From assembly GCA_041662965.1 (NCBI GenBank), contig JBAZRI010000001.1:227680-291679 (forward strand): 64,000 bases of DNA. The letters are read 5' to 3'. This DNA comes from Patescibacteria group bacterium (GTDB lineage: Bacteria; Patescibacteriota; Patescibacteriia; Patescibacteriales; GWC2-42-12). The position numbers and the translations under genes are program-made. Under the pieces are notes generated by a model. The model had not been told where the DNA came from and did not search any database. It saw only the letters and a program-made list of their open reading frames with translations. Position 1 is the stretch's first letter; each line of letters begins with the position of its first letter. Shown in pieces: positions 4,261-57,801 of this stretch.

Positions 4261-4320
4261 CTGAGAAAAATAAAAAATAAATATAAATATAAATCCAATT
4301 AAATAAGGGGGTGAGGAGAG

Positions 4321-4914
4321 ATGATGCGCTCATTAAATGAAATTTTAGAAAATGTAAACAGTACCGTAGCCAATAGAATAAGCGCTTCCCGCATTTTGAT
4401 GTTGCCATTCTATCTAATCTACCATTATATGGGCGAATATAGCATATCATTCGCTCTGGCTTTTTATATGGTAATCTCGGATTTTCTAGATGGGTATGTG
4501 GCGCGACTATACGGCGAGATTAGCGAATTCGGGAAAATTTTGGACCCGATAGCGGATAAGGCCGTTACTTTAACTTTGTTTGTCTCTTTATTGGCAGGCT
4601 CGTATGGTTTGATTGAACGGTCTCTTTGGCGCTCAATCATTATAACTTCGTTAGGTCTGTTGGCGTTGGAAGCAGTTCTTATTATTTTAGGGCATTGGGC
4701 GGCTAAGAAAAATTTGCATAATGGCTCTAATCTATTCGGGAAAGCTAAGATGATAACCGAGAGCTATATTTTTTTATTCGGTTATTATTTTTTCTTTCTC
4801 AACCCAGGCTTATCTCCATTGGCGGAAATCGGCAGATCAATTAATGATTTGCTCTATGTGGCCGTTGGACTAGCTTTTTTAAGCATAATAGGCCACATTA
4901 CAGAAAAAAGATAA
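4321..4914 (+). CDS. CDP-alcohol phosphatidyltransferase family protein (PgsA-like)
   Basis: Family signature DFLDGYVARLYGEISEFGKILDPIADK, plus TM segments. Strong SD GAGGAG just upstream; the start may be 4324. Confidence 0.8.
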   Translation: MMRSLNEILENVNSTVANRISASRILMLPFYLIYHYMGEYSISFALAFYMVISDFLDGYVARLYGEISEFGKILDPIADKAVTLTLFVSLLAGSYGLIERSLWRSIIITSLGLLALEAVLIILGHWAAKKNLHNGSNLFGKAKMITESYIFLFGYYFFFLNPGLSPLAEIGRSINDLLYVAVGLAFLSIIGHITEKR

Positions 4915-4936
4915 CCAGGGCTACATACAATAGCCT

Positions 4937-4963
4937 AGAGCTTTCGCGAGAGAGCTCTTTTTT
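4937..4963 (+). terminator. Hairpin plus T run between the phosphatidyltransferase gene and mtaB-like
   Basis: AGAGCT-ttcgcgagag-AGCTCT followed by tttttt directly before the ATG at 4964. Confidence 0.5.
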
Positions 4964-6301
4964 ATGAAAAATATTAAAATAAAAATTTATACCTTAGGCT
5001 GTAAAGTTAATCAGTATGATTCGGGTAAACTAGCCGGCGAGCTGGTTCGGGCCGGCTTTATAACCGCGGACAAAAACGCCGATATAGCCGTAATCAATAG
5101 CTGCGCCGTGACTAAAACTGCCATAATTAAAAGCGGCCGCATGGTTAAATTGGCTAAAAAAGAAAACCCCAAAGCTAAAATCGTTTTAGCCGGCTGCTGG
5201 CCGAAAACCTATGGAATAAAGAATATTGCCGCTGATTTTATTATTGCCAAAGGCGAGGTCGGCGAGGCTATTAAAAAAATTGCGAATCGCTTCTCTCTAT
5301 TTAAGGATAAGATCTTTACGCCGGCTATCGCCGAGCTCGCGCTAACCGGCCGGACAAGGTATTTTATAAAAATTCAGGACGGCTGCGAGCAGTATTGCAG
5401 TTATTGCGTTATCCCTTACGCGCGCGGCAAATTAATTAGCAGGGGAGAGAAAGAAATTATTCGCGAAATTGAACGGGCGGTAAAAGCCGGATATCGGGAG
5501 ATCGTGCTGTCCGGAATCCATTTAGGGTTGTATGGAAAAACGAGCCAATTGTCATTGCGAGCGACCGGAGGGAGCGAAGCAATCTCACGTACTCGGAGCT
5601 TAACCGGAGATTGCCGCGTCGCTGGCGCTCCTCGCAATGACAAGCTGACGGCATTATTAAAAAAATTAGTTAAAATAAAAGATCTCGGCCGGATCAGGTT
5701 AAGTTCAATTGAAATCACCGAAGTATCGAGCGAGCTGATAAATTTAATGGCCGGGTCAAATAAAATTTGTAAGCATCTGCATATACCATTGCAGTCCGGC
5801 TCGGATAAAATTTTAAAATTAATGAATCGGCCATATGATGTAAAATATTTTTCTGGCCGGATAAAAAAAATTAGGCAAATTATGCCGGATATTGCCATTA
5901 CTACCGACGTGATTACCGGCTTCCCGGGCGAGACCGAGAAAGATTTTAAAGACACGGAAAAATTTATTAAGCGGATAAAATTCAGCCGTCTGCATGTGTT
6001 TCCATATTCGGCTCACGAAAAAACGCCGGCCGCTAAATTCCCCGGCCAAGTTAAAGAAAAAAATAAAGCGCAACGGGCGGAAAAATTAAGGCGGCTTGGC
6101 CTTAAGCTGGCTGAAGATTATAAAAAGAAATTCAAGGGCAGGGAGCTGGAGATTACCGTGGAGCGGATAAAGCAAGATGAAATTATCGGTAAAACCGAGT
6201 TTTATTTTGATATTTTATTTAAAAAGCGACAGCTTATCGGCGGAGAAGCCAGCCAAAGTAAAAAATTAATAGGCACGATTGTTAAGGTAAAAAACAATTA
6301 A
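4964..6301 (+). CDS. mtaB: MiaB/MtaB-family radical-SAM tRNA methylthiotransferase carrying an in-frame repeat insertion
   Basis: MTTase N-domain (IYTLGCKVNQYDS), radical-SAM cluster (GCEQYCSYCVIPYARG) and a TRAM-like C-terminus. Residues LSLRATGGSEAISRTRSLTGDCRVAGAPRNDK are encoded by a palindromic repeat. Confidence 0.85.
   Translation: MKNIKIKIYTLGCKVNQYDSGKLAGELVRAGFITADKNADIAVINSCAVTKTAIIKSGRMVKLAKKENPKAKIVLAGCWPKTYGIKNIAADFIIAKGEVGEAIKKIANRFSLFKDKIFTPAIAELALTGRTRYFIKIQDGCEQYCSYCVIPYARGKLISRGEKEIIREIERAVKAGYREIVLSGIHLGLYGKTSQLSLRATGGSEAISRTRSLTGDCRVAGAPRNDKLTALLKKLVKIKDLGRIRLSSIEITEVSSELINLMAGSNKICKHLHIPLQSGSDKILKLMNRPYDVKYFSGRIKKIRQIMPDIAITTDVITGFPGETEKDFKDTEKFIKRIKFSRLHVFPYSAHEKTPAAKFPGQVKEKNKAQRAEKLRRLGLKLAEDYKKKFKGRELEITVERIKQDEIIGKTEFYFDILFKKRQLIGGEASQSKKLIGTIVKVKNN
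5550..5642. repeat. TGTCAT-hairpin palindromic element inserted in frame inside the mtaB-like CDS
   Basis: 93 bp (31 codons), TGTCATTGCGAGCGACCGGAGGGAGCGAAGCAATCTC ... GAGATTGCCGCGTCGCTGGCGCTCCTCGCAATGACA. Near-identical in layout to 58563-58654. Confidence 0.85.
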
Positions 6302-6330
6302 AATCTCCCGAAAAAACTCTATAAAACATT

Positions 6331-7371: not shown

Positions 7372-7548
7372 TAATCGTCTTATTTTGGGAGTCTGAATTT
7401 TTTCCGGTTATTGCCGGCCATTTTCTTCCGGGTGGAAGAAAGTTGGGATTCAAGCTTTGTTCTTTACATTTTTTTTGACTACTGAAGGCAGGCCTTTGAG
7501 CCGGAGCTGGACGAGTTGAAACCCCTAGAGGGAGAAAGGTAGGGAAAG

Positions 7549-8277
7549 ATGAAAAAACAGTTTTTAGTATTAGCGGTTATGGTTGCTATTGTCTTTGGTT
7601 TTACAGCCATAGTAATGGCGGAGAATAATCTCCAGCGTCATTTTGTCTATTTTCAAGTGGGCAAATCTGATGTCGACAAGCAAAAGGTTTTGGATAAGTT
7701 GGTCAATATTAAGTCGGATTCCATCGTAGAAATATACGGGTATACTGACGAGAGAGGGCGAGCGGATATTAATATTCCGTTGGCTCAAAAAAGATCTGAG
7801 ACTATCGCTGGCGTGGTTAAAGGGGTAATGCCTGAAGTTAAGATTCGGGTAGTGAAGGGCATGCCTTATACCGACGACAAGTCGGTTAATGCCACGAGCG
7901 GGGAGATCAGAATTTACACGCCTGTTAAGGTAGCTCCGGCAGTTGTGGTTGAGCAGAAAGATTATTTACTCAACAAGTATGGATTTTATTTTATAGTCGT
8001 GGGTATAATCGGTCTCTGCTCTATTCTTGGTTTACTGATATGGATTTTGCGTAAATTTTTCATAAAGGCTAAACTTGTTTGGCCCCGGGAACTTTCGGAG
8101 ATCGCGGAGATGTTTCTGGAAAAATTGAACGGAAAAGACGTGAAAAATTGCCCGTTCTGCGGAATGGAAGTAGGCGGGAAAAATTACGTCGGGCACCTTC
8201 GCAGGTGCGTTAAGTCTCCGCTTTTTGAGAAAGACGCAGATGAAACAAAAACAATACTAATGGAAGCGAGGAGGTAA
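7549..8277 (+). CDS. OmpA-like peptidoglycan-binding domain protein with a central TM and a C-terminal CCHC zinc-ribbon-like tail
   Basis: Signal/anchor MKKQFLVLAVMVAIVFGFTAIVMA. OmpA_C-like segment FVYFQVGKSDV..IVEIYGYTDERGRADINIPLAQKRSETI. TM FYFIVVGIIGLCSILGLLIWIL. Tail motif CPFCG..HLRRC. Confidence 0.6.
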   Translation: MKKQFLVLAVMVAIVFGFTAIVMAENNLQRHFVYFQVGKSDVDKQKVLDKLVNIKSDSIVEIYGYTDERGRADINIPLAQKRSETIAGVVKGVMPEVKIRVVKGMPYTDDKSVNATSGEIRIYTPVKVAPAVVVEQKDYLLNKYGFYFIVVGIIGLCSILGLLIWILRKFFIKAKLVWPRELSEIAEMFLEKLNGKDVKNCPFCGMEVGGKNYVGHLRRCVKSPLFEKDADETKTILMEARR

Positions 8278-8281
8278 CAAA

Positions 8282-9256
8282 ATGAAGAAGACACAGAAGA
8301 TTATAGGATTGTTGTTGGCGCTTCTGTTAGTTACAGGTTGCGCCGCGAAGAACATGACGGTAAAAGAGTCGTTTGAATTGCCCCCTAACCCGAATTCGGT
8401 GCTTATTCAGACCGAAAAGGGAAAACAGGCGATTGTTCCAGAAAAAAAGCCTTATGTGGCTTATTTGATTCCTGTGAATCCGATTCTGGAGTTTGCCAGT
8501 AGGTTCGGTATCCGCCAGGATTTGTACCTGGAAGAGAAGGGCAGCAAACCAGAGAAACTTTCCGGCGAGAACTATATTGGCACTAAGATTCCTTGGGGAA
8601 CGAAATTGCATATCCTGGTCACTGACTTCAATAATAAGATTAATATGGACAGAAAAGGGTATATCGGTTCCCGCGACCAAGCAGGCCAACTCCGTCAATA
8701 CGGCCTGGACGGCAAGACCGTCTATGGGCAGTACGAGGAACGCTTTAACTGGGGGAAGATCAAGTCCCTTAAGGAAAGTGGCGTTATCCGGCTGGAAGTT
8801 CAACCCGACGACGCGAATGATAAGTTGATCAGCGAGTCCTTGAATAAAATCGCAGCCCAGGTTGATAAGTTAAATATTCCTAATTTAACAGAGCGGGTGC
8901 TAAGAAAGATTGGTGTTATAACCAGCCAAGATCTGATCATTGGTTTAGGCTTGGTACCCAGAGTAGAGGGGCTAATATTTATGTTCGGAGTACGAATTTT
9001 CCCTGTAATCATGGAGATCGCCGGTGCAGGAGAGCCTAATGGTCCACATCTGGAGCAATCCGTGATCACGAACTACGACCTCGGAAAAACATTAGCCGAG
9101 GAGATTGCGCCGATAAAGAGCATGATGGCCGAGCGCGATGAGGTGCAGGTCAGGGAATATCTCAAGATTCTGGCCGAGCACAATCGTGTGCTTAAGGCTC
9201 AAGAGGCCCTTCAGCAGCAGTACCAGTTACGGCTGGAGGAAAATAAAAAACCTTAA
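8282..9256 (+). CDS. Lipoprotein of unknown function with a C-terminal hydrophobic segment and coiled coil
   Basis: Lipobox LLLVTGC, strong SD AGGAGG 7 nt upstream, 4-nt gap from the upstream gene. Confidence 0.6.
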   Translation: MKKTQKIIGLLLALLLVTGCAAKNMTVKESFELPPNPNSVLIQTEKGKQAIVPEKKPYVAYLIPVNPILEFASRFGIRQDLYLEEKGSKPEKLSGENYIGTKIPWGTKLHILVTDFNNKINMDRKGYIGSRDQAGQLRQYGLDGKTVYGQYEERFNWGKIKSLKESGVIRLEVQPDDANDKLISESLNKIAAQVDKLNIPNLTERVLRKIGVITSQDLIIGLGLVPRVEGLIFMFGVRIFPVIMEIAGAGEPNGPHLEQSVITNYDLGKTLAEEIAPIKSMMAERDEVQVREYLKILAEHNRVLKAQEALQQQYQLRLEENKKP

Positions 9257-9277
9257 TGAAAGATGAGAGGTGGACAG

Positions 9278-10993
9278 ATGAGACGATTGATTTTATTTTT
9301 TGCGGCTCTATTTCTCTGCGCGACCTCTCATCTTGCCCTTGCCGATGAAGGCAAGGTTCAATATGAGCTGGTTACGCCGGAAGTTAGAGCGACGGCTGAA
9401 CACCGAGTAAAATATGGCGAATCGTTATGGGGTATTTTTAAAAAATACTATGGCGAGAATCCATCGGTGAATAAATGCCGCCGTTTGGCAGAATTAAACG
9501 CGATAAAGGATCCGAACCGCATTCGTGCGGGGCAGGTAATCAAGATCTATAAACCCTTAATCATGTTGCAAACTTCGGTCGTGTCTAATCGAACGACTGT
9601 TTCATTGCCAAAAGCCGCGGACAATGCGGTAGCGGCTTTGAAAAAAAGCTTGCGACAAGCGGATATAAAAATGTCCATCCCGGACGACTTAGCTCAAAAG
9701 GTTGTTATAGGGCTAGAGTCTTCTGAAACAATTCATCAATTAAACGGTGAAATTGTGGCCGCGACGACTTATGGCAAGTCGGCCCAAGGATGGACAAAAA
9801 TTGTGGCAAAAGGCGAGGTATCGGGCAAAAGTACAATTACAAGCATTAATGAAAATTACGCTGCTTTAGCAACACTTGCTAAGCAGTGTAAGAACGTCAT
9901 TATCCAGCTTGTGAAAAAAGTGCTTCCGCCGCCGCCACCGCCTAAAGTGGAAATACCGCCGCCACCGCCTAAAGTGGAAATACCGCCGCCTCCGCCGATG
10001 CCGCCGATATTACCACCGCCAGAGTTGTACAGTAAGCCGTTGGAACGGTTTTTAACGGTCTTGTATCGGGAGGCGGTTTGCCCGAACTGCGAGTTTGATT
10101 TAGCAGTCGGCAAGGTGCATCAGGATTATACTGATGACGCGCAAGATTATTCAACCTGGTTATATGCCGCAGTTAGGTGCCAAGTTTGGACCGATAAGGA
10201 TGGCAATATCCACAAAGCCGGCGTATATATTAACGGCAGCAAGTGGGAAGGTGATTGGAAGAAAACGTTTGATTTTGAAGGGAAAATTGAAACCTTCGGG
10301 GTTGAGCATAGAATCCAAACACCGGACAACCAAGAGTATATTTTCCGTATCGGTTATCGCACGCGCCAAGATCTTGGCGCTTCAAGCGATATCTACGGCA
10401 GATATCAAACGGAGACTAACTATAAGGCCCTGGTGTTTGAATCCGAGATCGACGACAATTCCCGTATTAACGAATTGTTTTTCTCAAGATTTAAGGTCGG
10501 CGTAGCCCTGATTACCGAGCTGTCGTCAAGCAGGTATTCAACCTGGACCAATAGTCTAAATGGTCAGGTGATTAACCTTAATGAAAAGCCTGACATAACT
10601 TCCGGGCTGGAATTTAAAAGCGAAATAAGAATTTTTAGTGACAAGCGCAAGCTGGTCACGCTATCGCTTGAGAGTTGGGTTAATTTTCTGTTTGACGGTG
10701 ATTCGGTTTATAAGTTGACCCCATATTTCGGAATCTTGGGCGATTCCTTAAAAATCGGGTATCAAGCTACCGGCCGAAACACCAATGGCAGTCATGCCTT
10801 TGGCAGTGGGTTTGCTTGGCAGCTTAATCTGGGCCAGCTATATGATTATTTAAAGTATAAAGGCTGGGACAGCGGGATTCCCCAACCCGAAATGAACATT
10901 TTCATCAACCCTGATGCCGTGCTTTACGGATCTACATCGGTGGCTGGTGGAGGAGATGTTTTCACTGACCCTGGCGCGTTATTAGAAAATTAA
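9278..10993 (+). CDS. Secreted LysM-domain protein with a poly-proline linker and a beta-rich C-terminal domain
   Basis: Signal peptide MRRLILFFAALFLCATSHLALA. LysM-like HRVKYGESLWGIFKKYYG..LNAIKDPNRIRAGQVIKI. Linker PPPPPPKVEIPPPPPKVEIPPPPP. About 330 aa with alternating aromatic and polar residues. Confidence 0.6.
   Translation: MRRLILFFAALFLCATSHLALADEGKVQYELVTPEVRATAEHRVKYGESLWGIFKKYYGENPSVNKCRRLAELNAIKDPNRIRAGQVIKIYKPLIMLQTSVVSNRTTVSLPKAADNAVAALKKSLRQADIKMSIPDDLAQKVVIGLESSETIHQLNGEIVAATTYGKSAQGWTKIVAKGEVSGKSTITSINENYAALATLAKQCKNVIIQLVKKVLPPPPPPKVEIPPPPPKVEIPPPPPMPPILPPPELYSKPLERFLTVLYREAVCPNCEFDLAVGKVHQDYTDDAQDYSTWLYAAVRCQVWTDKDGNIHKAGVYINGSKWEGDWKKTFDFEGKIETFGVEHRIQTPDNQEYIFRIGYRTRQDLGASSDIYGRYQTETNYKALVFESEIDDNSRINELFFSRFKVGVALITELSSSRYSTWTNSLNGQVINLNEKPDITSGLEFKSEIRIFSDKRKLVTLSLESWVNFLFDGDSVYKLTPYFGILGDSLKIGYQATGRNTNGSHAFGSGFAWQLNLGQLYDYLKYKGWDSGIPQPEMNIFINPDAVLYGSTSVAGGGDVFTDPGALLEN
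9929..9982 (+). repeat. Perfect 2 x 27-bp tandem repeat encoding PPPPPKVEI
   Basis: ccgccgccaccgcctaaagtggaaata occurs twice in tandem inside the LysM protein CDS. Confidence 0.85.
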
Positions 10994-11394
10994 GGCGCAA
11001 GGGTCATAATTTCCGAAAATTATATTGTTGAGTTTCAGAGCTTAGCTGCGTAATTTAAATTACGTGGCGGCCGAGCCGAGTCATTGGTTTAAAATCAAGA
11101 GACGGAGCCGAAACAGTAGACAATATTGTTAAAGGAAATAGTAGCACATTACAATGCATAGAATCAGCTTAATACGCTGTTATAATATATGGTGGCGATT
11201 TCTTTAAAAAGAAATCGCCACCCACCCAATTTCTTTACAAATCAAGAAAAATTATATTTAATAATATAAGCTAGAAGAAAGATAAGTTTAGGTAAATAAT
11301 TTATCTAAAATTACGTTTCTTTTAACAAGCCTAAAAATATTCACGGATGTTCCGTGAAAAAAATAAAGGCAAAATATTCATTAGGGAGGTGCAC

Positions 11395-11982
11395 ATGAAA
11401 AGATTATTGATAATTGCAGTAATGTTGGCAGTCATCGCCGTTGGTGCAAACCTGGCAATGGCGGCCGAGTTAAGGGATCTTGACAAGGAAGGAAACGGTT
11501 TTATTATTGAGGCAACTGCGACGGGTTTTACCGTTACGGTTATTGACAGGTTTACAAAATTGTCAGCACCATTTACGGGGCCGGATGCTAGTAGTTGGAT
11601 CCAGGAAAAAGGGGGCGTATCGCTGATCTCCACGGCCGGTTGGGTCGTGGATGGTAAAAAGGGCAACGCCAAGAGTGCGTCCTATGATGTCAAGGCAGGG
11701 GAAGGCAAGGCGGTTTATGTTTTTGCGGTCAACCCTTCAGTGGTTGGTAAACCGGTTAATGTTGCCGTGAGCAACGGGTCGGTAAACGACCAGCGGTCAA
11801 TCTGGCTGTGTCCGCCCTGGACCAGCCAAGTATTCTTCGCACGGGCGAACAACGCCCACCCGGACGGCGAGCACATGATATTCTTCCAGCTGGAAGGGGA
11901 AATCGTGCGCTCCGTCGTTGATGAGGCAAAAAAGGGAGGTTGGATTCCGGCGGCCGTTTACCATGCCGCCAAAATGAAATAA
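11395..11982 (+). CDS. Secreted hypothetical protein
   Basis: SD GGGAGGT upstream of the ATG at 11395, signal peptide MKRLLIIAVMLAVIAVGANLAMA. No family recognised. Confidence 0.5.
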   Translation: MKRLLIIAVMLAVIAVGANLAMAAELRDLDKEGNGFIIEATATGFTVTVIDRFTKLSAPFTGPDASSWIQEKGGVSLISTAGWVVDGKKGNAKSASYDVKAGEGKAVYVFAVNPSVVGKPVNVAVSNGSVNDQRSIWLCPPWTSQVFFARANNAHPDGEHMIFFQLEGEIVRSVVDEAKKGGWIPAAVYHAAKMK

Positions 11983-12044: not shown

Positions 12045-13428
12045 AGGAGACTTCTTTTAAATTCGCGTAAGCTATGACGGCGCCGGTGTAGCTCCAAATC
12101 AAAAATTGCAAAGGCATGGTGCGAAGAATATTGTCGCCTAATGATATAGCTAAGATGCCCAGCCAAAGAATAATTAAACTAAAGAGATAATTTCTAATAT
12201 ATTTGCTGTCCGTTTTATAAAGTTTATAGATTAAAATAAATAATGATATAAATATGCTTATATATATTGCCAGGCCGATAATGCCCAACTCTATCAGGAG
12301 GCGGAGGTAATCATTATGAGCCTGGAGCGATTCATAAGTTTTTGCTTCATCATTATATTTTAAATTTATATTTTTAAAACTGCCTAAACCGTAGCCGAGA
12401 ACCGGGGCGTTCGTAAAGGCCGGCAAGGTAGTCTCAATAATTTTAAGCCGGGTAATAAGGGAACTATTATATTTTGGGTTAAAAACGTCGTTGACGCGTT
12501 CATTTATCGCGGGAGTGAAAAGATAAGCTAGAAAAATTAAAGCAGTAATAGCGACTAGAAATTTACGGCTTTTAAATAAGCCGAAGACTAAAGACATTGC
12601 TAAAAGACCAATCCAGGCGCCGCGCGTTAAAGTTATAAGCGCAATAAATAAATTTAAAAGCAGTAAAACAGCCAAGGGAATTTTTTTGCTTTTATTAATT
12701 TTATTGGACAATAAAGCATAAATAATAGGCAGAGTAGATATGAGATAAAAGGCTAAAGTAGCCGGATGCGAGAAGGTGCCATCAACCCTGTAAGCCATTA
12801 TAGTTTTATCCCACCACCCGCTAACGGTAAAATATTGATAAAAAGAGATTAAGCAGGGAAATAGAGAGCCGAATAATATTGCCGCGATAAGTTGATAAAA
12901 ATTATTTTTATTTTTTACCGCCAATATGGAATAAATAAATAAAATAAAAATAATAATGATCCGGGATAATTCTATGGCGGATGATGTTTTATCTATTGAA
13001 TATATGACGCTTAGAGCGGAGGTTATTAAAAACAAAAAAAATAAAGTTATTACTTTGTATTTTTTTATTAACTCGATTGTTGGCTTAATGTTTCTTAATA
13101 AAAATATACCGCCGAAGGCTAAAACCATCAAATCTATAACAAAGTTAAAATTAAAGGAAATATTATTAAAATTGCCCACGATTATCGTTTCCGATATGTC
13201 TCTTAAACTCGGCGTGATTAAAAAAATGAAGAATAAAAAATATATTGGTTTATATAAAAAAAGAGGAGATAGGCCAAGCAGCAACCCAAGCATTAATTTC
13301 ATATAAATAGTTGCATCAAGCGAGAGAACGGCAAAAAACAATATTAAGGCTAATATTAAATAACTTATTGCTAGCACGCCTGGTTGCCCTTGACTTTTTT
13401 TATAAAATATATTATTATGTAAGGTCAT
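12043..13428 (-). CDS. O-antigen ligase / polymerase-like (Wzy_C family) membrane protein
   Basis: About 11 TM segments, the LTRGAWIGLLAMSL motif, and a large loop with SLQAHNDYLRLLIELG. Confidence 0.7.
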   Translation of the reverse strand: MTLHNNIFYKKSQGQPGVLAISYLILALILFFAVLSLDATIYMKLMLGLLLGLSPLFLYKPIYFLFFIFLITPSLRDISETIIVGNFNNISFNFNFVIDLMVLAFGGIFLLRNIKPTIELIKKYKVITLFFLFLITSALSVIYSIDKTSSAIELSRIIIIFILFIYSILAVKNKNNFYQLIAAILFGSLFPCLISFYQYFTVSGWWDKTIMAYRVDGTFSHPATLAFYLISTLPIIYALLSNKINKSKKIPLAVLLLLNLFIALITLTRGAWIGLLAMSLVFGLFKSRKFLVAITALIFLAYLFTPAINERVNDVFNPKYNSSLITRLKIIETTLPAFTNAPVLGYGLGSFKNINLKYNDEAKTYESLQAHNDYLRLLIELGIIGLAIYISIFISLFILIYKLYKTDSKYIRNYLFSLIILWLGILAISLGDNILRTMPLQFLIWSYTGAVIAYANLKEVS

Positions 13429-13448: not shown

Positions 13449-14453
13449 ATGAAGAAACACCAATACAATCAATATTACTCCAAAATCTCGATTATTAGAA
13501 GGCATATTAAGACTAGTCTGCCATATTTAAATATTAGCAAATTTTTAAATATTTTGCTATCAAAAATAGGAGAGGCTATAGGTTTGGAAATAATCAGGCC
13601 CAAACCTTTTTTTATAAAGATTGAGCCGACAAATAAATGTAATCTACGTTGCCCCGGCTGCCGGCAAGCGCTTGGGGAAAAAGATCATATGCCAGGCGGC
13701 TATTTCGGCGATATGGATTTTTCCGCATTCGCTAAAATAATTGATGAGTTGAAAAAGTATTTGGTAAAAGTCTCTCTTTATTTTGAGGGCGAATCTCTAA
13801 TCAACGGGCAAATCAGTCAGATGGTTAAATATTTATCCGATAGAAATATTGGCAGTGTTATTAGCACTAATTTTAATTATCTGCCGGATAAATTAGCCGA
13901 AGAGCTGGTCGCCAATAGATTAACTCATTTGATAGTATGTCTTGACGGCTATAACGAAGAAACATATCAGAGATACAGGCGAGGAGGCAGTTTTCAAAAA
14001 GTTGTTGAGAATATAAAAAAAATTCAGATAGAAAAAAATAAACAAAAATCAAAATATCCGTTGGTTGAAATACAAACAATCAATTTTTCATATTATTCAA
14101 GCGAAGAGAAAGAGAAGATTAAATTACTGGCCGAAAAATTGGGCGCGGATTATTTCACTTTTAAAGATGATCTAAATTCTTATTATAATAATCCGCGGCC
14201 GGCGGGTAAAAGATGCTTTTGGTTGTATGGCCACCCGGCATTCCGTTGGGACGGCGAAGTCCAGCCATGCTGCTATTATTATAATAAGGAAGATAATAAT
14301 TTTGGGAATATTAAGGAGAGTAGCGTAAGACAAATATGGAATAATAAAAAATACCGCGCCGCCAGAAGGTATTTTAAGAACGGCGAGAAAGATAAATCAT
14401 TAAATATCCGTTGTTACTATTGCGATTTTTTTAAATATGAAAATAATAAATAA
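13449..14453 (+). CDS. Radical SAM protein with a Cys-rich SPASM/twitch-like C-terminus (paralog 1 of 3)
   Basis: CNLRCPGC (CX3CX2C) cluster motif. C-terminal GEVQPCCYYY ... NIRCYYCDFF. Confidence 0.75.
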   Translation: MKKHQYNQYYSKISIIRRHIKTSLPYLNISKFLNILLSKIGEAIGLEIIRPKPFFIKIEPTNKCNLRCPGCRQALGEKDHMPGGYFGDMDFSAFAKIIDELKKYLVKVSLYFEGESLINGQISQMVKYLSDRNIGSVISTNFNYLPDKLAEELVANRLTHLIVCLDGYNEETYQRYRRGGSFQKVVENIKKIQIEKNKQKSKYPLVEIQTINFSYYSSEEKEKIKLLAEKLGADYFTFKDDLNSYYNNPRPAGKRCFWLYGHPAFRWDGEVQPCCYYYNKEDNNFGNIKESSVRQIWNNKKYRAARRYFKNGEKDKSLNIRCYYCDFFKYENNK

Positions 14454-15426
14454 ACAACCTCGCACCGCGACTTTAGCCGTAACTTATAGATGCAATTCAC
14501 GTTGCCGGATGTGCAATATCTGGCGAAGTAAAATTGCCGACAGCCTAAAGCCGGCTGACTATTTAAAATTGCCGAAAAGTTTAAATGATATAAATATTAC
14601 CGGCGGCGAACCATTTTTAAGGGATGATTTATTAGAGATATTGGATAGTATTTTTAAAAGATGCAACCCTGAAAGATTGGTTATTTCATCCAACGGTTTT
14701 TTAACCGACCGGATAGTCGGTCTAGCTAAAATAATCTTAAAGCGTAGCTATGCCGACCGCGTTATTATCGCTTTGTCTCTGGACGCTCTAGGCAAAAAGC
14801 ATAATGAAATCCGGGGAGTCGTTAATGCTTTTGAACTGGTTATTAACACAATAACCGAATTAAAAAGAATCGGCTTTAATAATATCGGCCTAGGTTTTAC
14901 TTTTATCTCCGGGAATGAAGATCAGTATTTACCCGTCTATGAATTCGCCAAGAAGAATAACTTAAATTTCGGCGCGACTATCGCCCATAACGCGGAAAAT
15001 TATTTTTCTACGGACAATAATGAAAAACCTGATTATAAAATAATTAAAAAGCAGACTGATTATTATATTGGTGAAAAAATAGAATCGTTTAAAAAAAATG
15101 AGCTGGGCAAATGCTATTATATGCATGGCTTAGCTTATTATGCCAGGACGGGGAAAGCGTTAGTTAATTGTGACGCTATGCGCGGGTCATTTTTCATAGA
15201 TCCGCGGGGCAATATTTATCCCTGTAATATTTTAACCGATATCGCCGGCAATTTACTTGAGGCAGATTTTAAGAATATTTGGCAAAGCCGGGCGGCTGAT
15301 AAAATTAGATGTAAAACAAAAAATTGTCCGACTGCCTGCTGGATGGTCTGCACGGCCAAGCCGGGGATAAAAAAACACTGGCTAAAAACAGGGCTTTGGT
15401 TAATTAAACGTAAATTGAAGCAATAA
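14437..15426 (+). CDS. Radical SAM / SPASM-domain protein (paralog 2 of 3)
   Basis: CNSRCRMC cluster motif, GGEPFL. C-terminal IDPRGNIYPC ... CKTKNCPTACWMVC. Overlaps the upstream gene by 17 nt. Confidence 0.75.
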   Translation: MKIINKQPRTATLAVTYRCNSRCRMCNIWRSKIADSLKPADYLKLPKSLNDINITGGEPFLRDDLLEILDSIFKRCNPERLVISSNGFLTDRIVGLAKIILKRSYADRVIIALSLDALGKKHNEIRGVVNAFELVINTITELKRIGFNNIGLGFTFISGNEDQYLPVYEFAKKNNLNFGATIAHNAENYFSTDNNEKPDYKIIKKQTDYYIGEKIESFKKNELGKCYYMHGLAYYARTGKALVNCDAMRGSFFIDPRGNIYPCNILTDIAGNLLEADFKNIWQSRAADKIRCKTKNCPTACWMVCTAKPGIKKHWLKTGLWLIKRKLKQ

Positions 15427-15429
15427 AAT

Positions 15430-16533
15430 ATGTTTAATAAACATAAAACAATTAAATACGGTAAAATTGCTTTAGCCAAATTAAAGAATATATTTGTTGG
15501 CAATATTTATTTAAGGACAGGATTATTTATGCCCCGGCCGACTAAATTATATTATTTGATGTCAAATAAATGTAATTTTCGCTGTCAAATGTGCCCGCAA
15601 TGGAAAATCGGAGAAGGTGAAAATATTAGTGGTTATATTAGCGAAAACAGAATTAAAGAGATAATTAAAGAAATGGCAAAATTAAAAATTTTTGAATTTG
15701 GAATTTCCGGCGGCGAACCTTTAATTTTTAAAGACAAATTATTAAGGCTGTTAAAATATGCTAATGAGCAAGGTCTCTATACCCATTTCGCGACCAACGG
15801 CAGCTTATTAACCGAAGAATTTTTAGAAAAATATGATAACTTCGGCGGCGGCCATATTTCACTGTCTTTGGACGCGGGCGAAATTTTACATGACAGCTTG
15901 CGCGGATTCCCCGGCGCTTATAAAAACGCCATGGCAGTGATGAAAATATCCAGCGGTAATAAATATAAAAATATAAATTTAAAAATTAACATTACGTTGA
16001 CTAATGAAAATTTAGATGAAATAAGCCCCTTGCTCATGAAAGCAAAAGAAATTGGCGCGATGGTTTTTATCCAGCCTTATGATGCCTACGATTACGGCAA
16101 TAAAAATATAGATTATAAAGAAAATAATTATCCATTATGGGTTAAAAAAGAAAATTATTTTAAATTAAAAAAATTAATCAGTAAATTATTAGAATTTAAA
16201 AGAAAAAATCCGGAGATATTATTAAACGACGAAAAACACTTGAAAGTTTTTTATAGTTATTTTACCGATAGCAATTATTCAGCCAAGTGCTATGCCGCCA
16301 TAGACCAAGTAACTATAGATCCTTTCGGCAATGTGATATTATGTAAATTCGGAAAAATTGTTAATTTGCGTGACACCAGCTTAAAGGATTATATATATAG
16401 CAAAAAAAGAAAAGATATCGTTAAGGCCAGCCTGCAATGCGGTGAAGGTTGTTTGCTTGGTTGTATGTTTAAGCCAAGTCTTATAGATTTAATCAGACAC
16501 GGAAGCAAGCAGTTCTTTAAATTAATAAAATAA
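15430..16533 (+). CDS. Radical SAM / SPASM-like protein (paralog 3 of 3)
   Basis: CNFRCQMC cluster motif, SGGEPLI. C-terminal IDPFGNVILC ... LQCGEGCLLGC. 3-nt gap from the upstream gene. Confidence 0.75.
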   Translation: MFNKHKTIKYGKIALAKLKNIFVGNIYLRTGLFMPRPTKLYYLMSNKCNFRCQMCPQWKIGEGENISGYISENRIKEIIKEMAKLKIFEFGISGGEPLIFKDKLLRLLKYANEQGLYTHFATNGSLLTEEFLEKYDNFGGGHISLSLDAGEILHDSLRGFPGAYKNAMAVMKISSGNKYKNINLKINITLTNENLDEISPLLMKAKEIGAMVFIQPYDAYDYGNKNIDYKENNYPLWVKKENYFKLKKLISKLLEFKRKNPEILLNDEKHLKVFYSYFTDSNYSAKCYAAIDQVTIDPFGNVILCKFGKIVNLRDTSLKDYIYSKKRKDIVKASLQCGEGCLLGCMFKPSLIDLIRHGSKQFFKLIK

Positions 16534-17090: not shown

Positions 17091-17187
17091 GGTTTTTCCT
17101 CCCTAGAATAGGTTAAATATGAATTTTAAAAAAGCAATGAATATTATTGCGAATTGCAATCTTAATTTATATCATATATTGAGTAAT

Positions 17188-40629: not shown

Positions 40630-40633
40630 TTTC

Positions 40634-45603: not shown

Positions 45604-45632
45604 AAAAATCCCGAAAGGGGAAGGGGGATGAC

Positions 45633-45893
45633 ATGAATTACGAGGAGTATTTGTTCTTTTTATTTTCAATTTTTTTTGGCATTTACTTGATGGGCAGAGG
45701 ATTTTCTTCTGAAACGCTCTCTCTAACGTGTGCAATATTTGGATTATTTATTTTCTTTTTTGCCTTCATGAATTTATTATTTTTAGGGCCAGGAAGCAAA
45801 GTGGCTACCATGCCGGCGGATATATTTTTCGCGGTGGTAGCTGGAATGTTAATAGCGTGGGCCTTTGGAAAGACAATCGAAAGGAGGACATGA
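45633..45893 (+). CDS. Small membrane protein (86 aa, 3 TM)
   Basis: G-rich SD GGGGAAGGGGGA upstream. Hydrophobic segments. The stop overlaps the next start (ATGA). Confidence 0.45.
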   Translation: MNYEEYLFFLFSIFFGIYLMGRGFSSETLSLTCAIFGLFIFFFAFMNLLFLGPGSKVATMPADIFFAVVAGMLIAWAFGKTIERRT

Positions 45894-46186
45894 TGAATTT
45901 ATGGGAAGCTTTTATTTTTATAATGTTAGTTTTTGTATTTATTCTGATAACCGAAAGGAAAAATGTTAATAACCCGGGGCGGATAGGAGAATATGCGATT
46001 TTTATGTTTTTCGTTGTAATATTGACATCAGGAATAATAATGTTATTTATTTCTTTCTTTTCTTTTTATTGCCACTGGCCATCTTTTTATTGCCGCTGGC
46101 CATTCGTAGTGGTACTTGATAGTATGGTAATATCATATTCTGGCTTGCTGTTGGGCTATACTGTAAAGCAATTGTTTTTTAAATAA
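45890..46186 (+). CDS. Small membrane protein (98 aa) with an FYCHWPSFYCRWP duplication
   Basis: SD AGGAGG 3 nt upstream of the ATG at 45890. The tracked ORF start (45728) overlaps the previous gene out of frame and is rejected. Confidence 0.45.
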   Translation: MMNLWEAFIFIMLVFVFILITERKNVNNPGRIGEYAIFMFFVVILTSGIIMLFISFFSFYCHWPSFYCRWPFVVVLDSMVISYSGLLLGYTVKQLFFK

Positions 46187-47571: not shown

Positions 47572-47579
47572 AAATTGAT

Positions 47580-48023
47580 ATGGATTTAATAGAACATTAT
47601 AAAAAAGTCCAAACAGCTTGCGACTGCGCTTTAAAAATAATTGGCATTACCAAGCTTAAATTCAGGCCCATGCGCCGCCAAGACGACCACGTTAATACCA
47701 AGCGTGGTTTTGTTATCGGCCGGACGAATTTAAAAACCGGCCTGATTACGATTGATATTTTTACGCCGAAGTTCAGAAAGCCAAAAAAAATTTCTTCAAT
47801 TTTAAGGACGCTAGCCCATGAAGCCGCGCATCATCAAAAACCGCCTTACCGCTCGCGGTTCAGGGGGCGGATAATAACCAGAATTCATTACCCGATATTT
47901 TATCGGCAGGTAACGAGAAATATTAAGAAGTTGAAAAAAGACAAAACGCTGGGGGAGTATTTTTCCTTGAATAGGGGATATAGGCATTTATTTTTAAAGC
48001 GGTATGCGCGTATTACTTTATAG
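47580..48023 (+). CDS. Putative zinc metallopeptidase-like protein (HExxH; SprT/DUF45-like)
   Basis: The LAHEAAHH motif in a small basic protein; weak assignment. Confidence 0.35.
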   Translation: MDLIEHYKKVQTACDCALKIIGITKLKFRPMRRQDDHVNTKRGFVIGRTNLKTGLITIDIFTPKFRKPKKISSILRTLAHEAAHHQKPPYRSRFRGRIITRIHYPIFYRQVTRNIKKLKKDKTLGEYFSLNRGYRHLFLKRYARITL

Positions 48024-48062
48024 TCATTTCAATAAATCTAAATTTCTACGGGCTTAACCTAG

Positions 48063-48107
48063 ATTCCCGCCCGCCTAGCGGACTGGTAAACCTGCGCGGG
48101 AATGACA
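48063..48107. repeat. Solo TGTCAT-hairpin unit just 3' of the metallopeptidase-like gene
   Basis: ATTCCCGC-ccgcctagcggactggtaaacct-GCGGGAATGACA. A degenerate partner aGTCATTTC lies at 48022. Confidence 0.6.
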
Positions 48108-48613
48108 ATAAAAAATTAGTCGCTTACAGCGGTAGTTATTTAAAGGGGGAATTACTATAACGGCTATACTTTTCTAATATAATAGCGTCGCACAATATAA
48201 CTTATGCGACGCCAGACTAACCTTTGATATAATCTATTTGCTTGAGTTTATGCCCGGCCTATTGAATTAACATGCCGAACAGGCTGATTTGCGGGTAAAA
48301 TAATAATATGAATTTCAATAAAAGTAAAAATAAGCCGACAATCAAAAAACAAAATACTATTACCCCTAAAATAAACAATGTTTTAAAAATTCCTTCCATA
48401 AGCTTATTGGCGCATTAAAATTTAAATGCCCGCCTGGTACCTATGTACCTTTTTAGGTTTAAATTTTAATAGGTTTATTAACATAAATTTAATTTTTTTC
48501 AATAGCCGGGTTATTTTTTCTGAAATTATGCTGTTATATAATCTCGCCTGCCTGCTTGCTACCAGTATATAACATTTTTTAATATTATGTAATTAGTTAT
48601 GTGTCGCAAAATA

Positions 48614-53296: not shown

Positions 53297-53740
53297 TGTC
53301 ATCCCGAGTGAGCGCATCTGCCAATCGGCAGATGAGCGACGAGGGATCTCGTTAAATGCAATAATGTAAATTATAAAAAATCTATTATTAAGTCTTTAAA
53401 TATTAAGTTGTTACTTTTTATTAAGTTTATTTTCTTTTCTCTGCGCCAGCCTTTTAATTCTTTTTCTCTGGAGATGGCGTAGCTAATATCATTAAATATT
53501 TCATAATAAACTAATTTATTGATATTGTACTTCGCGGTAAAACTTTTTGGAAATTTTTTATTTTTATGTTCATAGCAGCGGTTCAATAGATTATTGGTAA
53601 CTCCGATATAAAATCGTTTATTATTGATGTTAGTTAAAATATAAATATAGTAAGTATATTCTTTCATCTTTAAATTATATTATCATTTTATCGCGCTTTG
53701 CCGAGATCCCTCTGCCGCTGAAGCGGCATTCGGGATGACA
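53297..53740 (-). mobile_element. GIY-YIG gene bracketed by inverted TGTCAT-hairpin termini (candidate autonomous element, copy 1)
   Basis: TGTCATCCCGAGTGAGCGCATCTGCCAATCGGCAGATGAGCGACGAGGGATCTCG (53297-53351) and CGAGATCCCTCTGCCGCTGAAGCGGCATTCGGGATGACA (53702-53740). Confidence 0.65.
53371..53667 (-). CDS. GIY-YIG nuclease family protein (98 aa)
   Basis: YYIYILTN..RFYIGVTNNLLNRCYEHKN ... AISREKELKGWRREKKINLIKS. Confidence 0.8.
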   Translation of the reverse strand: MKEYTYYIYILTNINNKRFYIGVTNNLLNRCYEHKNKKFPKSFTAKYNINKLVYYEIFNDISYAISREKELKGWRREKKINLIKSNNLIFKDLIIDFL

Positions 53741-55778: not shown

Positions 55779-55859
55779 AATGTTTATTAAATTAGAAGTA
55801 AAATTATATAATCTACAATATACAGGAAGTTTAAAATTTGCGCAAGAGCGTTGTTCGCG

Positions 55860-57362
55860 CTAAAAATTATTTTTTAATTTTAAATTTTCCAGCATAACCG
55901 CGGCGATGATTAGGCAGCCGATGCCTAAAGGATGGTTAACGTACGGGCTGAAGATATTAACCGCCAAGACGACTATTAAGCCGGCGGCTAATGACAAGGA
56001 ATAATATGAGCCTATTTTAAAGCCGTCAAAAATAAGCTTGGCAAATAAAGCTAAATAAGCCAATAAGCCGAAAATTCCCAATTTCAGCCAAACATCAAGC
56101 CAGCCCCATTCAAAAGCATAAGTCGTGTATTCACCTTTTAAATTAGCGCTTAAAACGCGGGGATCGCTGCTGATATAAGTTACCGTGGCGCCAAAGCCTT
56201 GGCCTAAAATCGGCGCGGCTTTAATTTTCTGCCATAACGGCGGCAAAAGCTGCCACCTTGAAGAAGCGCCGGCCTCATCAGTAATTTGCGTGGCTCGGTC
56301 GCTTAATAAATTCGTGGCGTTAAAATCTCCGGCCGGCGCCGGGTAAGGAAATTTTATAATAAAAAAAGTTAAGGCCAGGCTTAAAATTATAACAGCTAGA
56401 GCCAGCAGGTTAAAAACGATAAATTCTTTTAACTTGGTTTTTAATTTAAAAATCATGGCCAGCCAAACGGATAAGCCGCCGGCCGCTAGCCCCAGCCAAA
56501 AGCTTCGCGAAAAACTGACTATGATGATTGATAATAATAAAGAGGCCAAGCCGATTAATTTAAGACTTTGTTTATTTAAGGCGGTATGTTTTTCCGCTAA
56601 ATTTTTCAATAAATAAAACAGCAGAATAAAAAAGCCGATTAAAACAAAAATATGCGATTGCATAAATATCCGGTTGAACCCGGGAACGACTTGGGTTATC
56701 TCCCCGACTCCGCTGCGGCGCACCCAAAGGTAAAGATCCGGAATAAAAAAATTAAAACTATGGGAAAAAATATAAGCTAAAATAATCGTTTTTACGCTAA
56801 GCCAGCTTATGGACGCTAAAAATATTTGCTTAACAATGTTTAAATTATCGTCAGATCGCAAAAGGGAAAATACCGGAAAAACCAATAAAAAATACAGCCA
56901 ATTGTTAAAATCAAAAAAGATATTGTTTAACGAATTATTTTTTAAAAAGCCGCTTACTGCGCCTAGAGCGATGAAAATAAATAAAGCTGAAAAATAAAAT
57001 AAATAAGGCGAACGGAAAAAATTTAATTCCAGCTTTTTTGTTTTTACCGATTTAATTACGGTTCCGGCCAGCCAAACCGACATAACAATCAGCCAGAGCG
57101 CGATGCGGATGGAAATTTTAAAACCGCCGGTTTCAAAATAGAATAAATAACCGAAAGAGCTGATTAACAGTTCGGCTAATAATATATATAAGCCATATTC
57201 CAGCCGGTATAATGATAAGATTAAAACCAGAGCTATTATAATAAAAAACGCGGTAAAATTAACCGCCGGATAATAATAGCCTAAAAATGATAATATTTCG
57301 GCTAAGATTATCAGTAAAAAAATTAACCGTAAATTTTTATTTAAAATACCATTTATTGACAT
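55860..57362 (-). CDS. O-antigen-ligase-like polytopic membrane protein
   Basis: At least 10 TM segments, an SFSRSFWLGLAAGG motif, and a large outward loop near the C-terminus. Confidence 0.5.
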   Translation of the reverse strand: MSINGILNKNLRLIFLLIILAEILSFLGYYYPAVNFTAFFIIIALVLILSLYRLEYGLYILLAELLISSFGYLFYFETGGFKISIRIALWLIVMSVWLAGTVIKSVKTKKLELNFFRSPYLFYFSALFIFIALGAVSGFLKNNSLNNIFFDFNNWLYFLLVFPVFSLLRSDDNLNIVKQIFLASISWLSVKTIILAYIFSHSFNFFIPDLYLWVRRSGVGEITQVVPGFNRIFMQSHIFVLIGFFILLFYLLKNLAEKHTALNKQSLKLIGLASLLLSIIIVSFSRSFWLGLAAGGLSVWLAMIFKLKTKLKEFIVFNLLALAVIILSLALTFFIIKFPYPAPAGDFNATNLLSDRATQITDEAGASSRWQLLPPLWQKIKAAPILGQGFGATVTYISSDPRVLSANLKGEYTTYAFEWGWLDVWLKLGIFGLLAYLALFAKLIFDGFKIGSYYSLSLAAGLIVVLAVNIFSPYVNHPLGIGCLIIAAVMLENLKLKNNF

Positions 57363-57421
57363 TCTGTTTAATATTAGTTAAAGTTATTTTAAATAACCGA
57401 TGGAAATAAGGAGGGTAATTT

Positions 57422-57478
57422 ATGAGGATATGGCGGCTCTTTTCAATCGTAGTTATTATTTCTTGGCTAATAGGCTAA
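57422..57478 (+). CDS. Possible 18-aa hydrophobic micro-ORF (MRIWRLFSIVVIISWLIG)
   Basis: Strong SD AAGGAGGG 6 nt upstream. Not in the supplied track. Hand-translated. Confidence 0.2.
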   Translation: MRIWRLFSIVVIISWLIG

Positions 57479-57540
57479 TTATATAATTTATTTTATTTAA
57501 ATTCATCTAAAAATTTTTACCCAAACAGAAGGAGGGGCTA

Positions 57541-57801
57541 ATGGAAAAAAGAAAAAGTATTATAGAATCGATTATTGACACTGCGTGTGAAAATTTCATA
57601 AGACGGATAGAACTCATGGCTGAATTTGAATCTCAGGCAGAGCGATCTTCAAAAAAAATTATGCCTGAGCCTTGCGCAGCATGCGGCTGTAATTTCTATG
57701 TTATTAGCGAATCATGCTTAATAACTGATATTTTTTGTTCTCAAGATCCACAAAATAATCAGAAAATCATGGTATGCGCTGACTGTGGCGAGCCAATTTA
57801 A
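57541..57801 (+). CDS. Small Cys-rich (zinc-ribbon-like) orphan protein (86 aa)
   Basis: SD AAGGAGGGG 3 nt upstream. Contains CAACGC ... CADCGEPI. Confidence 0.45.
   Translation: MEKRKSIIESIIDTACENFIRRIELMAEFESQAERSSKKIMPEPCAACGCNFYVISESCLITDIFCSQDPQNNQKIMVCADCGEPI

Follow-up and report, generated by a model that had tools for sequence, protein, structure and literature searches.

Strong Shine-Dalgarno sequences on an atypical minority of genes in a Patescibacteria genome

Ribosomes of the candidate phyla radiation (CPR), or Patescibacteria, are reduced, and to our knowledge nothing is known experimentally about how they initiate translation. Here we describe the start signals in a 64,000-nucleotide stretch of a Patescibacteria group bacterium genome (contig JBAZRI010000001.1, positions 227,680 to 291,679), referred to as the window, in which a strong Shine-Dalgarno (SD) sequence precedes a small set of atypical genes and is missing from the core genes. 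Genomes with low SD usage and a few SD-led genes are well described in the Bacteroidia and in groups B and X of the GeneMarkS-2 classification (PMC6028130). In the Bacteroidia the anti-SD is present but sequestered by bS21, bS18 and bS6, and an SD is retained on rpsU (PMC7797042, PMC9976891); about 3% of the genes in Bacteroides ovatus have an SD (PMC6028130). Group C of the same classification (Actinobacteria, Deinococcus) has leaderless first genes with a Pribnow box 6-8 nt from the start, other genes being SD-led (PMC6028130). In Parcubacteria, loss of uL1 tracks loss of the anti-SD (PMC9297842). In full-text searches this was the only paper we found that touches on the anti-SD in CPR, and none was found on a split of SD use by gene class within one CPR genome.

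The locus resembles the Bacteroidia in its core genes without SD, its A- or A/U-rich unstructured starts and its small minority of strong SDs (PMC6028130, PMC7797042, PMC9976891). It differs in belonging to Patescibacteria, in the SD-led minority of ~15%, which consists of accessory envelope and small proteins and not of rpsU, and, it appears, in the upstream signature, with T at position -1 (the strongest single position) in 66% and A at position -6 in 61% of starts, counted over the 62 genes classed below as non-SD only; sequestration of the anti-SD would be putative here. Strong SDs, which in Bacteroidia are essentially confined to rpsU, are found here on 12 accessory genes in 80 kb. As in group C, types of start signal coexist and 7 genes have a Pribnow-like box at a distance of 6 nt from the start, but operon-internal and long-leader genes, such as the ribosomal-protein operon and clpB, have no SD here. 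In our view it comes closer to group B or X, supplemented by an SD-led atypical class. With the anti-SD-less Parcubacteria (PMC9297842) it shares the broad group and a very low SD use; in contrast to these, the contig encodes uL1 and has conserved, well-spaced SDs. The Ribosomal_L1 gene is located 5.5 kb beyond the window start, which places the genome outside the uL1-lacking subgroup.

Two classes of translation starts

The dataset consisted of 79 called genes with precomputed Pfam hits on 80,160 bp, joined from overlapping stretches, of the 130,862-bp parent contig (ENA metagenome ERZ27249449:k141_107985, of which the window is the reverse strand), corresponding to window coordinates -9085 to 71074. 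To quantify SD strength, we calculated with RNAduplex the free energy (ΔG) of pairing between the 20 nt 5' of each called start and ACCUCCUUU, and classified the starts as strong (<= -9.5 kcal/mol), mid (-7 to -9.5) or non-SD (> -7). The strength was bimodal and strongly enriched at starts: 10 genes were strong, 7 were mid and 62 were non-SD (median 0), and a two-component mixture was favoured over one component by the Bayesian information criterion (440 vs 478). Among 1972 other ATGs on both strands, 0.5% reached a ΔG of <= -9.5 (binomial p = 1.2e-11 vs called starts), and 8 of the 52 occurrences of GGAGG on the two strands were found 5-7 nt upstream of a called start, where ~0.4 would be expected.

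These results bear on an earlier note on this DNA, which had cited about a dozen strong SDs, named a series of housekeeping starts without any, and proposed that anti-SD complementarity be computed for all starts as a check on a split. All 12 cited starts exist and have a purine-rich SD 0-9 nt upstream, none of the named housekeeping starts has a correctly spaced SD, and the computation, run on the 79 genes, yielded a split and not a unimodal distribution. The non-SD class included all genes seen for ribosomal proteins, tRNA synthetases, division, the cell wall and chaperones, and the core genes remained without an SD when the best of the first four candidate starts was taken for each open reading frame (ORF).

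Gene starts were assigned automatically, by a caller with a preference for ribosome-binding-site (RBS) motifs; codon usage, orthology and the position of signal peptides are independent of that bias. The set was also curated. The mid group of 3961, 13584, 18408, mraZ and rpsD was rejected, mostly for wrong spacing, a doubtful start or a spurious ORF; the last applies in all likelihood to 3961, a 42-aa call in overlap with tRNA-Lys. We retained 7549 and 9278 because their orthologs have textbook SDs. The final set contained 12 SD genes, 11 inside the window and 1 just outside, and an uncalled 18-codon ORF at 57422 was counted apart. The 11 genes and the small ORF are as follows, with ΔG in kcal/mol, CAI for the codon adaptation index (reference: translation genes of the contig stretch) and GC3 for the G+C content at third codon positions; the first four genes after the phosphatidyltransferase form a module.

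4305-4914 (+): divergent CDP-alcohol phosphatidyltransferase (PF01066), directly 3' of tRNA-Lys and tRNA-Thr; SD AAGGGGG-T-GAGGAGAG at 4305-4320, with GAGGAGAG at 4313-4320; start 4321/4324; ΔG -11.5; CAI 0.55
7527-8277 (+): module gene 1, whose product combines a signal/anchor segment, part of an OmpA-like peptidoglycan-binding domain and a CxxC at the C-terminus; SD AGAGGGAGAAAGG/AGGGAAAG, start 7549; ΔG -8.6
8268-9256 (+): module gene 2, lipoprotein (lipobox LLVTGC); SD GAGGAGGT, with GAGGAGG at 8268-8274, 7 nt from ATG 8282; ΔG -12.9; GC3 0.56; CAI 0.48
9265-10993 (+): module gene 3, secreted LysM protein (LysM E = 1.3e-7); SD GAGAGGTGG, start 9278; ΔG -7.6
11383-11982 (+): module gene 4, secreted protein of 195 aa in its own transcription unit, 3' of a hairpin at 11191-11222; SD AGGGAGGTG, with AGGGAGG at 11383-11389, 5 nt from ATG 11395; ΔG -12.1; GC 0.52; GC3 0.57; CAI 0.47
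16596-17104 (-): orphan secreted protein of 164 aa, antisense to both neighbours (radical SAM and GT1 genes), with a TTGACA-17-TATAAA promoter ~75 nt upstream; SD AGGGAGG at 17098-17104, 7 nt from ATG 17090; ΔG -10.8
37208-37805 (+): Cys-rich cytoplasmic protein of 195 aa, antisense to both neighbours, with its own promoter and terminator; SD GGAGGGG at 37208-37214, 3 nt from ATG 37218; ΔG -9.8
40675-40937 (+): four-Cys protein of 64 aa, divergent from clpB, with an extended -10 promoter (TGcTATAAT) ending at 40703 and a leader of ~33 nt; SD AAAGGAGGGG at 40730-40739, start 40743; ΔG -12.2
45613-45893 (+): membrane protein of 86 aa with hydrophobic segments; SD GGGGAAGGGGGA, 4 nt from ATG 45633; ΔG -11.4; CAI 0.49
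45879-46186 (+): membrane protein of 97/98 aa with an ATGATG start (45890/45893), coupled in translation to the 45633 gene; SD AAAGGAGGA at 45880-45888; ΔG -11.9; CAI 0.56
57408-57478 (+): uncalled hydrophobic mini-ORF of 18 codons (MRIWRLFSIVVIISWLIG) with a TTGACA promoter-like hexamer upstream, 60 nt 5' of the next gene; SD AAGGAGGG, 6 nt from ATG 57422
57527-57801 (+): Cys-rich protein of 86 aa with two CxxC pairs (Cys 9.3%), antisense to both neighbours, with a terminator hairpin 3'; SD AAGGAGGGG at 57529-57537, 3-5 nt from ATG 57541; ΔG -12.7; CAI 0.54

The start of the LysM gene was placed at 9278, where the signal peptide begins, and the alternative at 9263 was rejected. The linker of this protein has a PPPPPKVEI repeat, encoded by a tandem 27-nt repeat at 9929-10009, of which two copies are identical and a third has diverged, and is followed by a C-terminal domain for which a β-rich fold is weakly suggested; an AlphaFold2 model from a 7-sequence alignment reached a pLDDT of 41. 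The mini-ORF at 57422, whose SD is perfect, would if translated yield perhaps a leader peptide, perhaps a small membrane protein. The twelfth gene (88 aa) is located on locus L005, part of the parent contig, ~340 nt before the window start. Its SD is preceded, at a distance of ~85 nt, by another perfect AAGGAGGTGA (L005 8663-8770) with no ATG, GTG or TTG after it; a 24-codon frame initiated at ATT and ending on the SD of the 88-aa gene would be a speculative product.

The starts of the non-SD genes have a signature of their own. They contained 79% A+T over positions -20 to -1 and 3-9% G at -9 to -1, with A in 54% at -2, and the segment from -30 to +30 folded less stably (-4.9 kcal/mol) than windows taken from the interior of these genes (-9.3 kcal/mol; p = 4e-8). 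A TATAAT-like hexamer ends exactly 6 nt before the start of 7 non-SD genes, whereas 1-2 such hexamers were observed at other spacings. These 7 starts are suggestive of leaderless mRNAs, although the genes are few; one is just outside the window and the others are listed here together with clpB.

2418-3826 (-): dnaB, gene position 2418, probable leaderless start; the end of its TATTAT box is 6 nt away from the ATG
24981-25369: -10-box gene, position 24995
26310-27145: -10-box gene, position 26324
34293-34603: -10-box gene, position 34307
42061-42815: -10-box gene, position 42075
53371-53681 (-): -10-box gene, position 53371
37868-40662 (-): clpB, non-SD gene with a leader of ~130 nt and no SD; ΔG +0.2

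The clpB gene is preceded by the promoter TTGACA-17-TATATT on the minus strand (40662-40634; 11 of 12 consensus positions) and, directly downstream of it, by a perfect CIRCE operator, TTAGCACTC-N9-GAGTGCTAA, at 40603-40629, implying control of clpB by an HrcA-type heat-shock system in this CPR lineage. The operator is conserved in two related loci, L097 and L098. Because the ~130-nt leader of clpB has no SD, initiation without an SD must extend beyond leaderless mRNAs in this genome. Likewise, operon-internal genes for ribosomal proteins and of the mur/fts type have no SD while the operon-internal genes of the module do, and together with clpB the latter rule out leader length or operon position as the cause of the split. 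In a more distant Patescibacteria locus, L034, clpB and groEL share an SD-containing leader, CTTGGGAGGGTAAAAAA (9960-10000 and 13250-13275), so that in other CPR lineages core genes of the heat-shock type can belong to the SD-led minority.

We surveyed 60-odd loci, including non-CPR controls. In those from Patescibacteria, generally 0-10% of the genes were SD-led and the strength tended to be all-or-none. Among the controls the highest SD users had 30-70% of their genes at a ΔG of <= -7, while some were as low as the CPR loci.

Composition and content of the SD-led genes

The SD class matched low codon adaptation almost perfectly. CAI values were <0.58 for 11 of the 12 SD genes and for 2 of the 67 others (p = 1e-10), the SD genes ranging from 0.45 to 0.56 against values of at least 0.59, and the contrast persisted when only non-SD genes of <=200 aa were compared (p = 4.6e-5). 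The different codon style that the earlier note had perceived by eye is thereby borne out, also at the level of single codons: GGC accounted for 0.74 of the glycine codons in core translation genes and for 0.36-0.44 in SD genes, while the fractions in the same two groups were 0.03 and ~0.2 for GCA, 0.04 and 0.25-0.35 for ACA, 0.04 and 0.16-0.41 for CCA, and 0.03 and 0.14-0.16 for AGT.

Oligonucleotide composition, which the note had also proposed to compare, set the SD genes apart as well. The genome has a signature that is extreme for a G+C content of 41%, with GCCGGC, CGGCCG and GGCCGG at 23, 18 and 15 times the mononucleotide expectation, 331 occurrences of GGCGG on both strands of the 80 kb, and dinucleotide ratios of 1.69 for ρ(GC), 1.45 for ρ(CG) and 0.56 for ρ(AC/GT). 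It accompanies a strong preference for the codons GGC, GCC, CCG and CGC. The SD genes lack this clustering of GC and CG (δ* 0.179 vs 0.097, p = 2.6e-6), and in comparisons with L097 the core genes had an excess of AT to GC synonymous differences of 2-2.6:1, whereas the SD genes had no such excess. Simple G+C content or GC3 failed as a discriminator of the classes; the singletons are AT-rich (GC3 0.28-0.41) and only the block at 7549-11982 is GC-rich. We also tried the depletion of SD motifs inside native genes as evidence for an anti-SD. Compared with shuffles of synonymous codons, GGAGG, GAGGT and AGGAG were depleted (z = -2.2 to -3.4), but so was the reverse complement CCTCC (z = -2.9). The depletion is therefore probably an effect of dinucleotide context and uninformative on the anti-SD, and this line of evidence was rejected.

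As the earlier note had stated, the SD genes mostly code for secreted, membrane or Cys-rich proteins (11 of 12), with one phosphatidyltransferase. Transmembrane or signal segments were identified in 8 of the 12, and at least 5% Cys in 3 of the 12 compared to none of 62 non-SD genes. No Pfam hit was obtained for 9 of the 10 strong-SD genes, whereas among the 62 non-SD genes 11 were without one (Fisher p = 1.7e-5), and profile searches of the SD proteins added only a sub-threshold OmpA-like segment in 7549 (E = 1.4e-4, below the Pfam cutoff) and the LysM domain in 9278. Five of the 12 SD genes stand singly, with both neighbours on the other strand; among the 67 others this is the case for 4. Promoter-like hexamers and terminator hairpins accompany these stand-alone SD genes, whose leaders measure roughly 30-110 nt. 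Signal peptides of SD-led genes start exactly at the SD-preceded ATG. We found no paralogy among the SD-led singletons, and no common motif was evident in the SD-led leaders beyond the SD.

SD-led genes in related genomes

We examined 98 fetched loci, each labelled with an L and a number. The best genome matches to ClpB were Patescibacteria metagenome-assembled genomes labelled Parcubacteria or Falkowbacteria, with identities of 70-80%. In L007 and L008 (~80% ClpB identity) the singletons beside clpB are absent although the flanking core genes are syntenic; in L007 the slot from the radical SAM gene to clpB is occupied by two SD-led small membrane genes of another kind, and the 45633 gene is also absent from both of these syntenic loci.

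A closer relative is L097, in which ClpB is 96% and other core proteins are 68-88% identical, with collinearity over 16 kb. The slot of 37218 is here occupied by a gene for a 197-aa homolog of 51-53% identity, the single homolog found, and the slot of 40743 by a gene for a 69-aa four-Cys protein. By using the conserved leader as a DNA pattern, we identified the same arrangement at the 40743 slot in L098. The promoter, leader and SD are ~90% identical in nucleotide sequence across all three genomes at the 40743 slot, and between the window and L097 at 37218. The proteins of the 40743 slot are nevertheless only 22-34% identical, as compared to 80-81% for the adjacent radical SAM protein, while their Cys pattern is conserved in the three genomes.

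Substitution frequencies at synonymous (dS) and nonsynonymous (dN) sites were estimated by the method of Nei and Gojobori. The dS values relative to L097 were 1.26 for 37218 and 1.37 for 40743, whereas eleven core genes yielded values of 0.48-1.32. This core-like divergence indicates that both genes predate the split between the window and L097. The dN/dS ratios were 0.27 and 0.56, respectively, against 0.04-0.23 for the core genes. Both genes are thus under selection, with proteins evolving several-fold (3-10x) faster than their neighbours at the same dS.

For the phosphatidyltransferase we found 3 close homologs, all others being 31-40% identical, and L094 retains the gene order tRNA-Thr, phosphatidyltransferase, MtaB as well as the SD leader. 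The 16596 protein has no real homolog among 1.84e9 representatives and its gene is absent from the syntenic L087, which makes it an ORFan.

The four-gene module at 7549-11982 is more widely distributed. Only 6 homologs of the LysM protein were found among 5.8e9 clustered proteins, and the contigs that encode such homologs (L087, L090-93, L095 and L096) carry the same module adjoining the same Wzy, radical-SAM/SPASM and GT1 genes. The module SDs in L087, L090, L095 and L096 have ΔG values of -9.9 to -12.5, apart from two calls with doubtful starts (the first gene of L090/L091 and the LysM gene of L096, called at a TTG without SD), whereas the flanking genes have values mostly near 0 (weakest -4.9). 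L087 and L095 contain an ortholog of 7549 (34% identity) that is preceded by the SD GGGGGAGGAAG (ΔG -11.0). Orthologs of 8282 in all four loci have an AGGAGG-type or G-rich SD, those of 9278 in L087, L090 and L095 have AAGGAGGTGA (ΔG about -12.4), and the genes at the position of 11395 in L087, L095 and L096 are SD-led with a GC3 of 0.50-0.58. GC3 values are 0.40-0.58 for the module in the relatives (0.30 for one 79-aa gene) and 0.20-0.31 for its flanking genes, and the proteins are 34-53% identical to those of the window as compared to 50-76% for the flanking proteins. The module is hence syntenic, with SDs, in at least three lineages at saturated divergence. No mobile-element footprints were found around it, in the form of either flanking repeats or an integrase.

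The surroundings of the module vary among the relatives. L094 has no SD-led module after the Wzz-like gene, and an insertion sequence (IS) element (HTH and rve transposase, 2298-3241) is inserted between mtaB and this gene, marking the locus as a variable region. In the polysaccharide locus of the window there are three tandem radical SAM genes, two of SPASM type, at 13449-16533; these are conserved in L087 and L090, where they are preceded by very AT-rich ORFs of 41 and 60 aa, and the cluster with the small ORFs may be a peptide-modification cassette. The TTG start called at 13584 is probably wrong, as the ATG at 13449 agrees better with the length of the L087 ortholog; this ATG has no SD and a TATAAT just upstream. 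Elsewhere in the window, two small stand-alone GIY-YIG genes at 43672-44028 and 53371-53667 (-) have by far the lowest G+C content (0.23-0.25, GC3 0.22-0.28). A similar gene (GC3 0.20) is located next to Wzy in L096, and these genes may be mobile or homing-endonuclease-like elements. An uncalled ORF for a basic 147-aa protein with a HEAAHH motif and no Pfam hit (47580-48023) begins 9 nt 3' of the M23 peptidase gene and fills part of an otherwise unannotated 1-kb gap at 47572-48613.

Initiation regimes and alternative explanations

The explanation we favour, with a probability of about 0.6, is that this Patescibacteria genome has two initiation regimes in parallel. In the default regime, which would serve about 80% of the genes, no SD is used and translation would start in an A+T-rich, G-depleted and weakly folded region, some mRNAs, with a -10 box at 6 nt from the ATG, probably being leaderless. 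The minority regime would serve 12 of the 79 genes through a strong canonical SD with a GGAGG core at a spacing of 3-9 nt, and these genes appear to be the lineage-specific, fast-evolving accessory fraction: the envelope module, small membrane proteins, Cys-rich proteins and the phosphatidyltransferase. The ribosome would keep a working anti-SD, as the presence of uL1 on the contig and the conserved, well-spaced SDs argue. Native genes would have lost their SDs and moved to A/U-rich unstructured or leaderless starts, while accessory genes, which do not have the native sequence style, would depend on SD pairing, so that selection would fix the SD and the leader while the proteins change. The accessory genes are perhaps of outside origin, but would already have been present when the lineages of the relatives studied here split off.

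Several observations weigh against this explanation. The analysed DNA is 80 kb of one genome, with 3 tRNAs and no rRNA in the window, and the 3' end of the 16S rRNA is absent from the window, the 80-kb stretch and all 98 fetched loci; rpsU, rpsR and rpsF also fall outside the 80-kb stretch. About half of the Parcubacteria reportedly have no CCTCCT in their 16S rRNA (Tsurumaki et al. 2022, PMC9297842). Five SD genes are without an ortholog; what speaks for them as real, conserved genes is therefore the length of the ORF, hydrophobicity and the signals for promoters and terminators. Moreover, the explanation gives no reason why the accessory genes could not take the A/U-rich solution. Nor does long-term residence alone account for a module GC3 of ~0.5 in a genome with a GC3 of ~0.25 at saturated divergence, which needs selection, biased gene conversion or repeated exchange.

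The earlier note had suggested that the SD-led genes may be recent acquisitions from an SD-using donor (a host, a phage or some other lineage). On this reading their adaptation to the codon usage and start signals of the recipient would still be outstanding. That they are an accessory and compositionally distinct set stands, given their codon usage, their δ* values and their few homologs, and like a genomic island they are codon and dinucleotide outliers, lineage-restricted and patchy. Their atypical signature would be expected of newcomers, and a recent arrival would also agree with the absence of the singletons from the syntenic relatives with ~80% ClpB identity, the different SD-led small genes in the L007 slot, the ORFan 16596 missing in L087, the IS element near the locus in L094 and a module GC3 that stays at ~0.5 in genomes with a GC3 of ≈ 0.25 as well as ≈ 0.4. 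Recency is what the relatives speak against, and we consider it unlikely. In contrast to a genomic island there is no donor, mobility gene or flanking repeat, and the orthologs in L097 and L098 are found in the same slots with near-identical leaders and have diverged along with the core genes, as judged from dS, while the module has kept its synteny over saturated divergence. The tRNA-adjacent gene order is kept in L094, and for the phosphatidyltransferase nothing beyond the three near relatives is closer than 31-40% identity. The best-hit taxonomy that the note had proposed to profile did not point to a donor: the LysM and 37218 proteins have homologs in this narrow CPR clade only, and for 16596 none was found. 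A phage origin was rejected, since the hits to PHROG profiles were confined to the generic LysM domain and signal-peptide-like matches and no viral contig was related. Recent acquisition is accordingly disfavoured by the sequence comparisons for 37218, 40743, 4324 and the module; an older foreign origin, which would fit the composition of the SD genes, is possible.

The note's other suggestion was a regulon with specialised translation, in which the anti-SD is sequestered and the SD-led mRNAs are read by a sub-population of ribosomes or under particular conditions, such as host contact or stress. This is an attractive but doubtful proposition. The core genes are without SDs genome-wide, as in the Bacteroidia (PMC7797042 and PMC9976891), purifying selection is strong on the SDs and leaders and not on the coding sequences, the set is coherent in comprising envelope, membrane and small Cys-rich proteins, and low codon adaptation fits low or conditional expression. 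However, the leaders share no motif beyond the SD, the SD class of Flavobacterium johnsoniae is reportedly in essence one gene, rpsU, as compared to 15% of the genes here, and plain constitutive use of SDs accounts for the same data. The stronger version, that the ribosomes are SD-blind by default and that the SD-led set is a conditional programme of surface and Cys-rich proteins read by a specialised ribosome state, for example during host attachment, seems to us quite improbable.

Finally, we give very little weight to an artefact of gene calling, in which the RBS reward of a Prodigal-type caller yields spurious small ORFs that are called only where an SD occurs by chance: on the two strands, 160 kb in all, ~10 uncalled ATGs do reach a ΔG of <= -9.5 by chance, several of the SD genes lack homologs and code for only 64-97 aa, and the ORF over tRNA-Lys probably arose in this way, but 7 of the 12 have frame-keeping orthologs or a Pfam domain (including 37218 with its dN/dS of 0.27 and the 40743 family with its Cys pattern), the SD ORFs occupy otherwise empty gaps between core genes with promoter-like and terminator-like signals, signal peptides begin at the SD-preceded ATG, and the codon contrast holds against short non-SD genes too.

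On the explanation with two parallel regimes, one genome shows a clean split between native genes without SDs and a stable, atypical and fast-evolving minority with conserved strong SDs. It predicts that the anti-SD is intact in this lineage and that only the accessory set, possibly under certain conditions, is translated in an SD-dependent manner. If the pattern does not hold genome-wide, it is merely a local curiosity. For annotation, the consequence is that gene callers with a single start model will misplace starts in this genome. The presence of an SD could mark a flexible gene pool in such genomes, possibly one for interactions with the host, and if the reading by specialised ribosomes were true, there would be a translational switch over the symbiosis-facing part of a CPR proteome.

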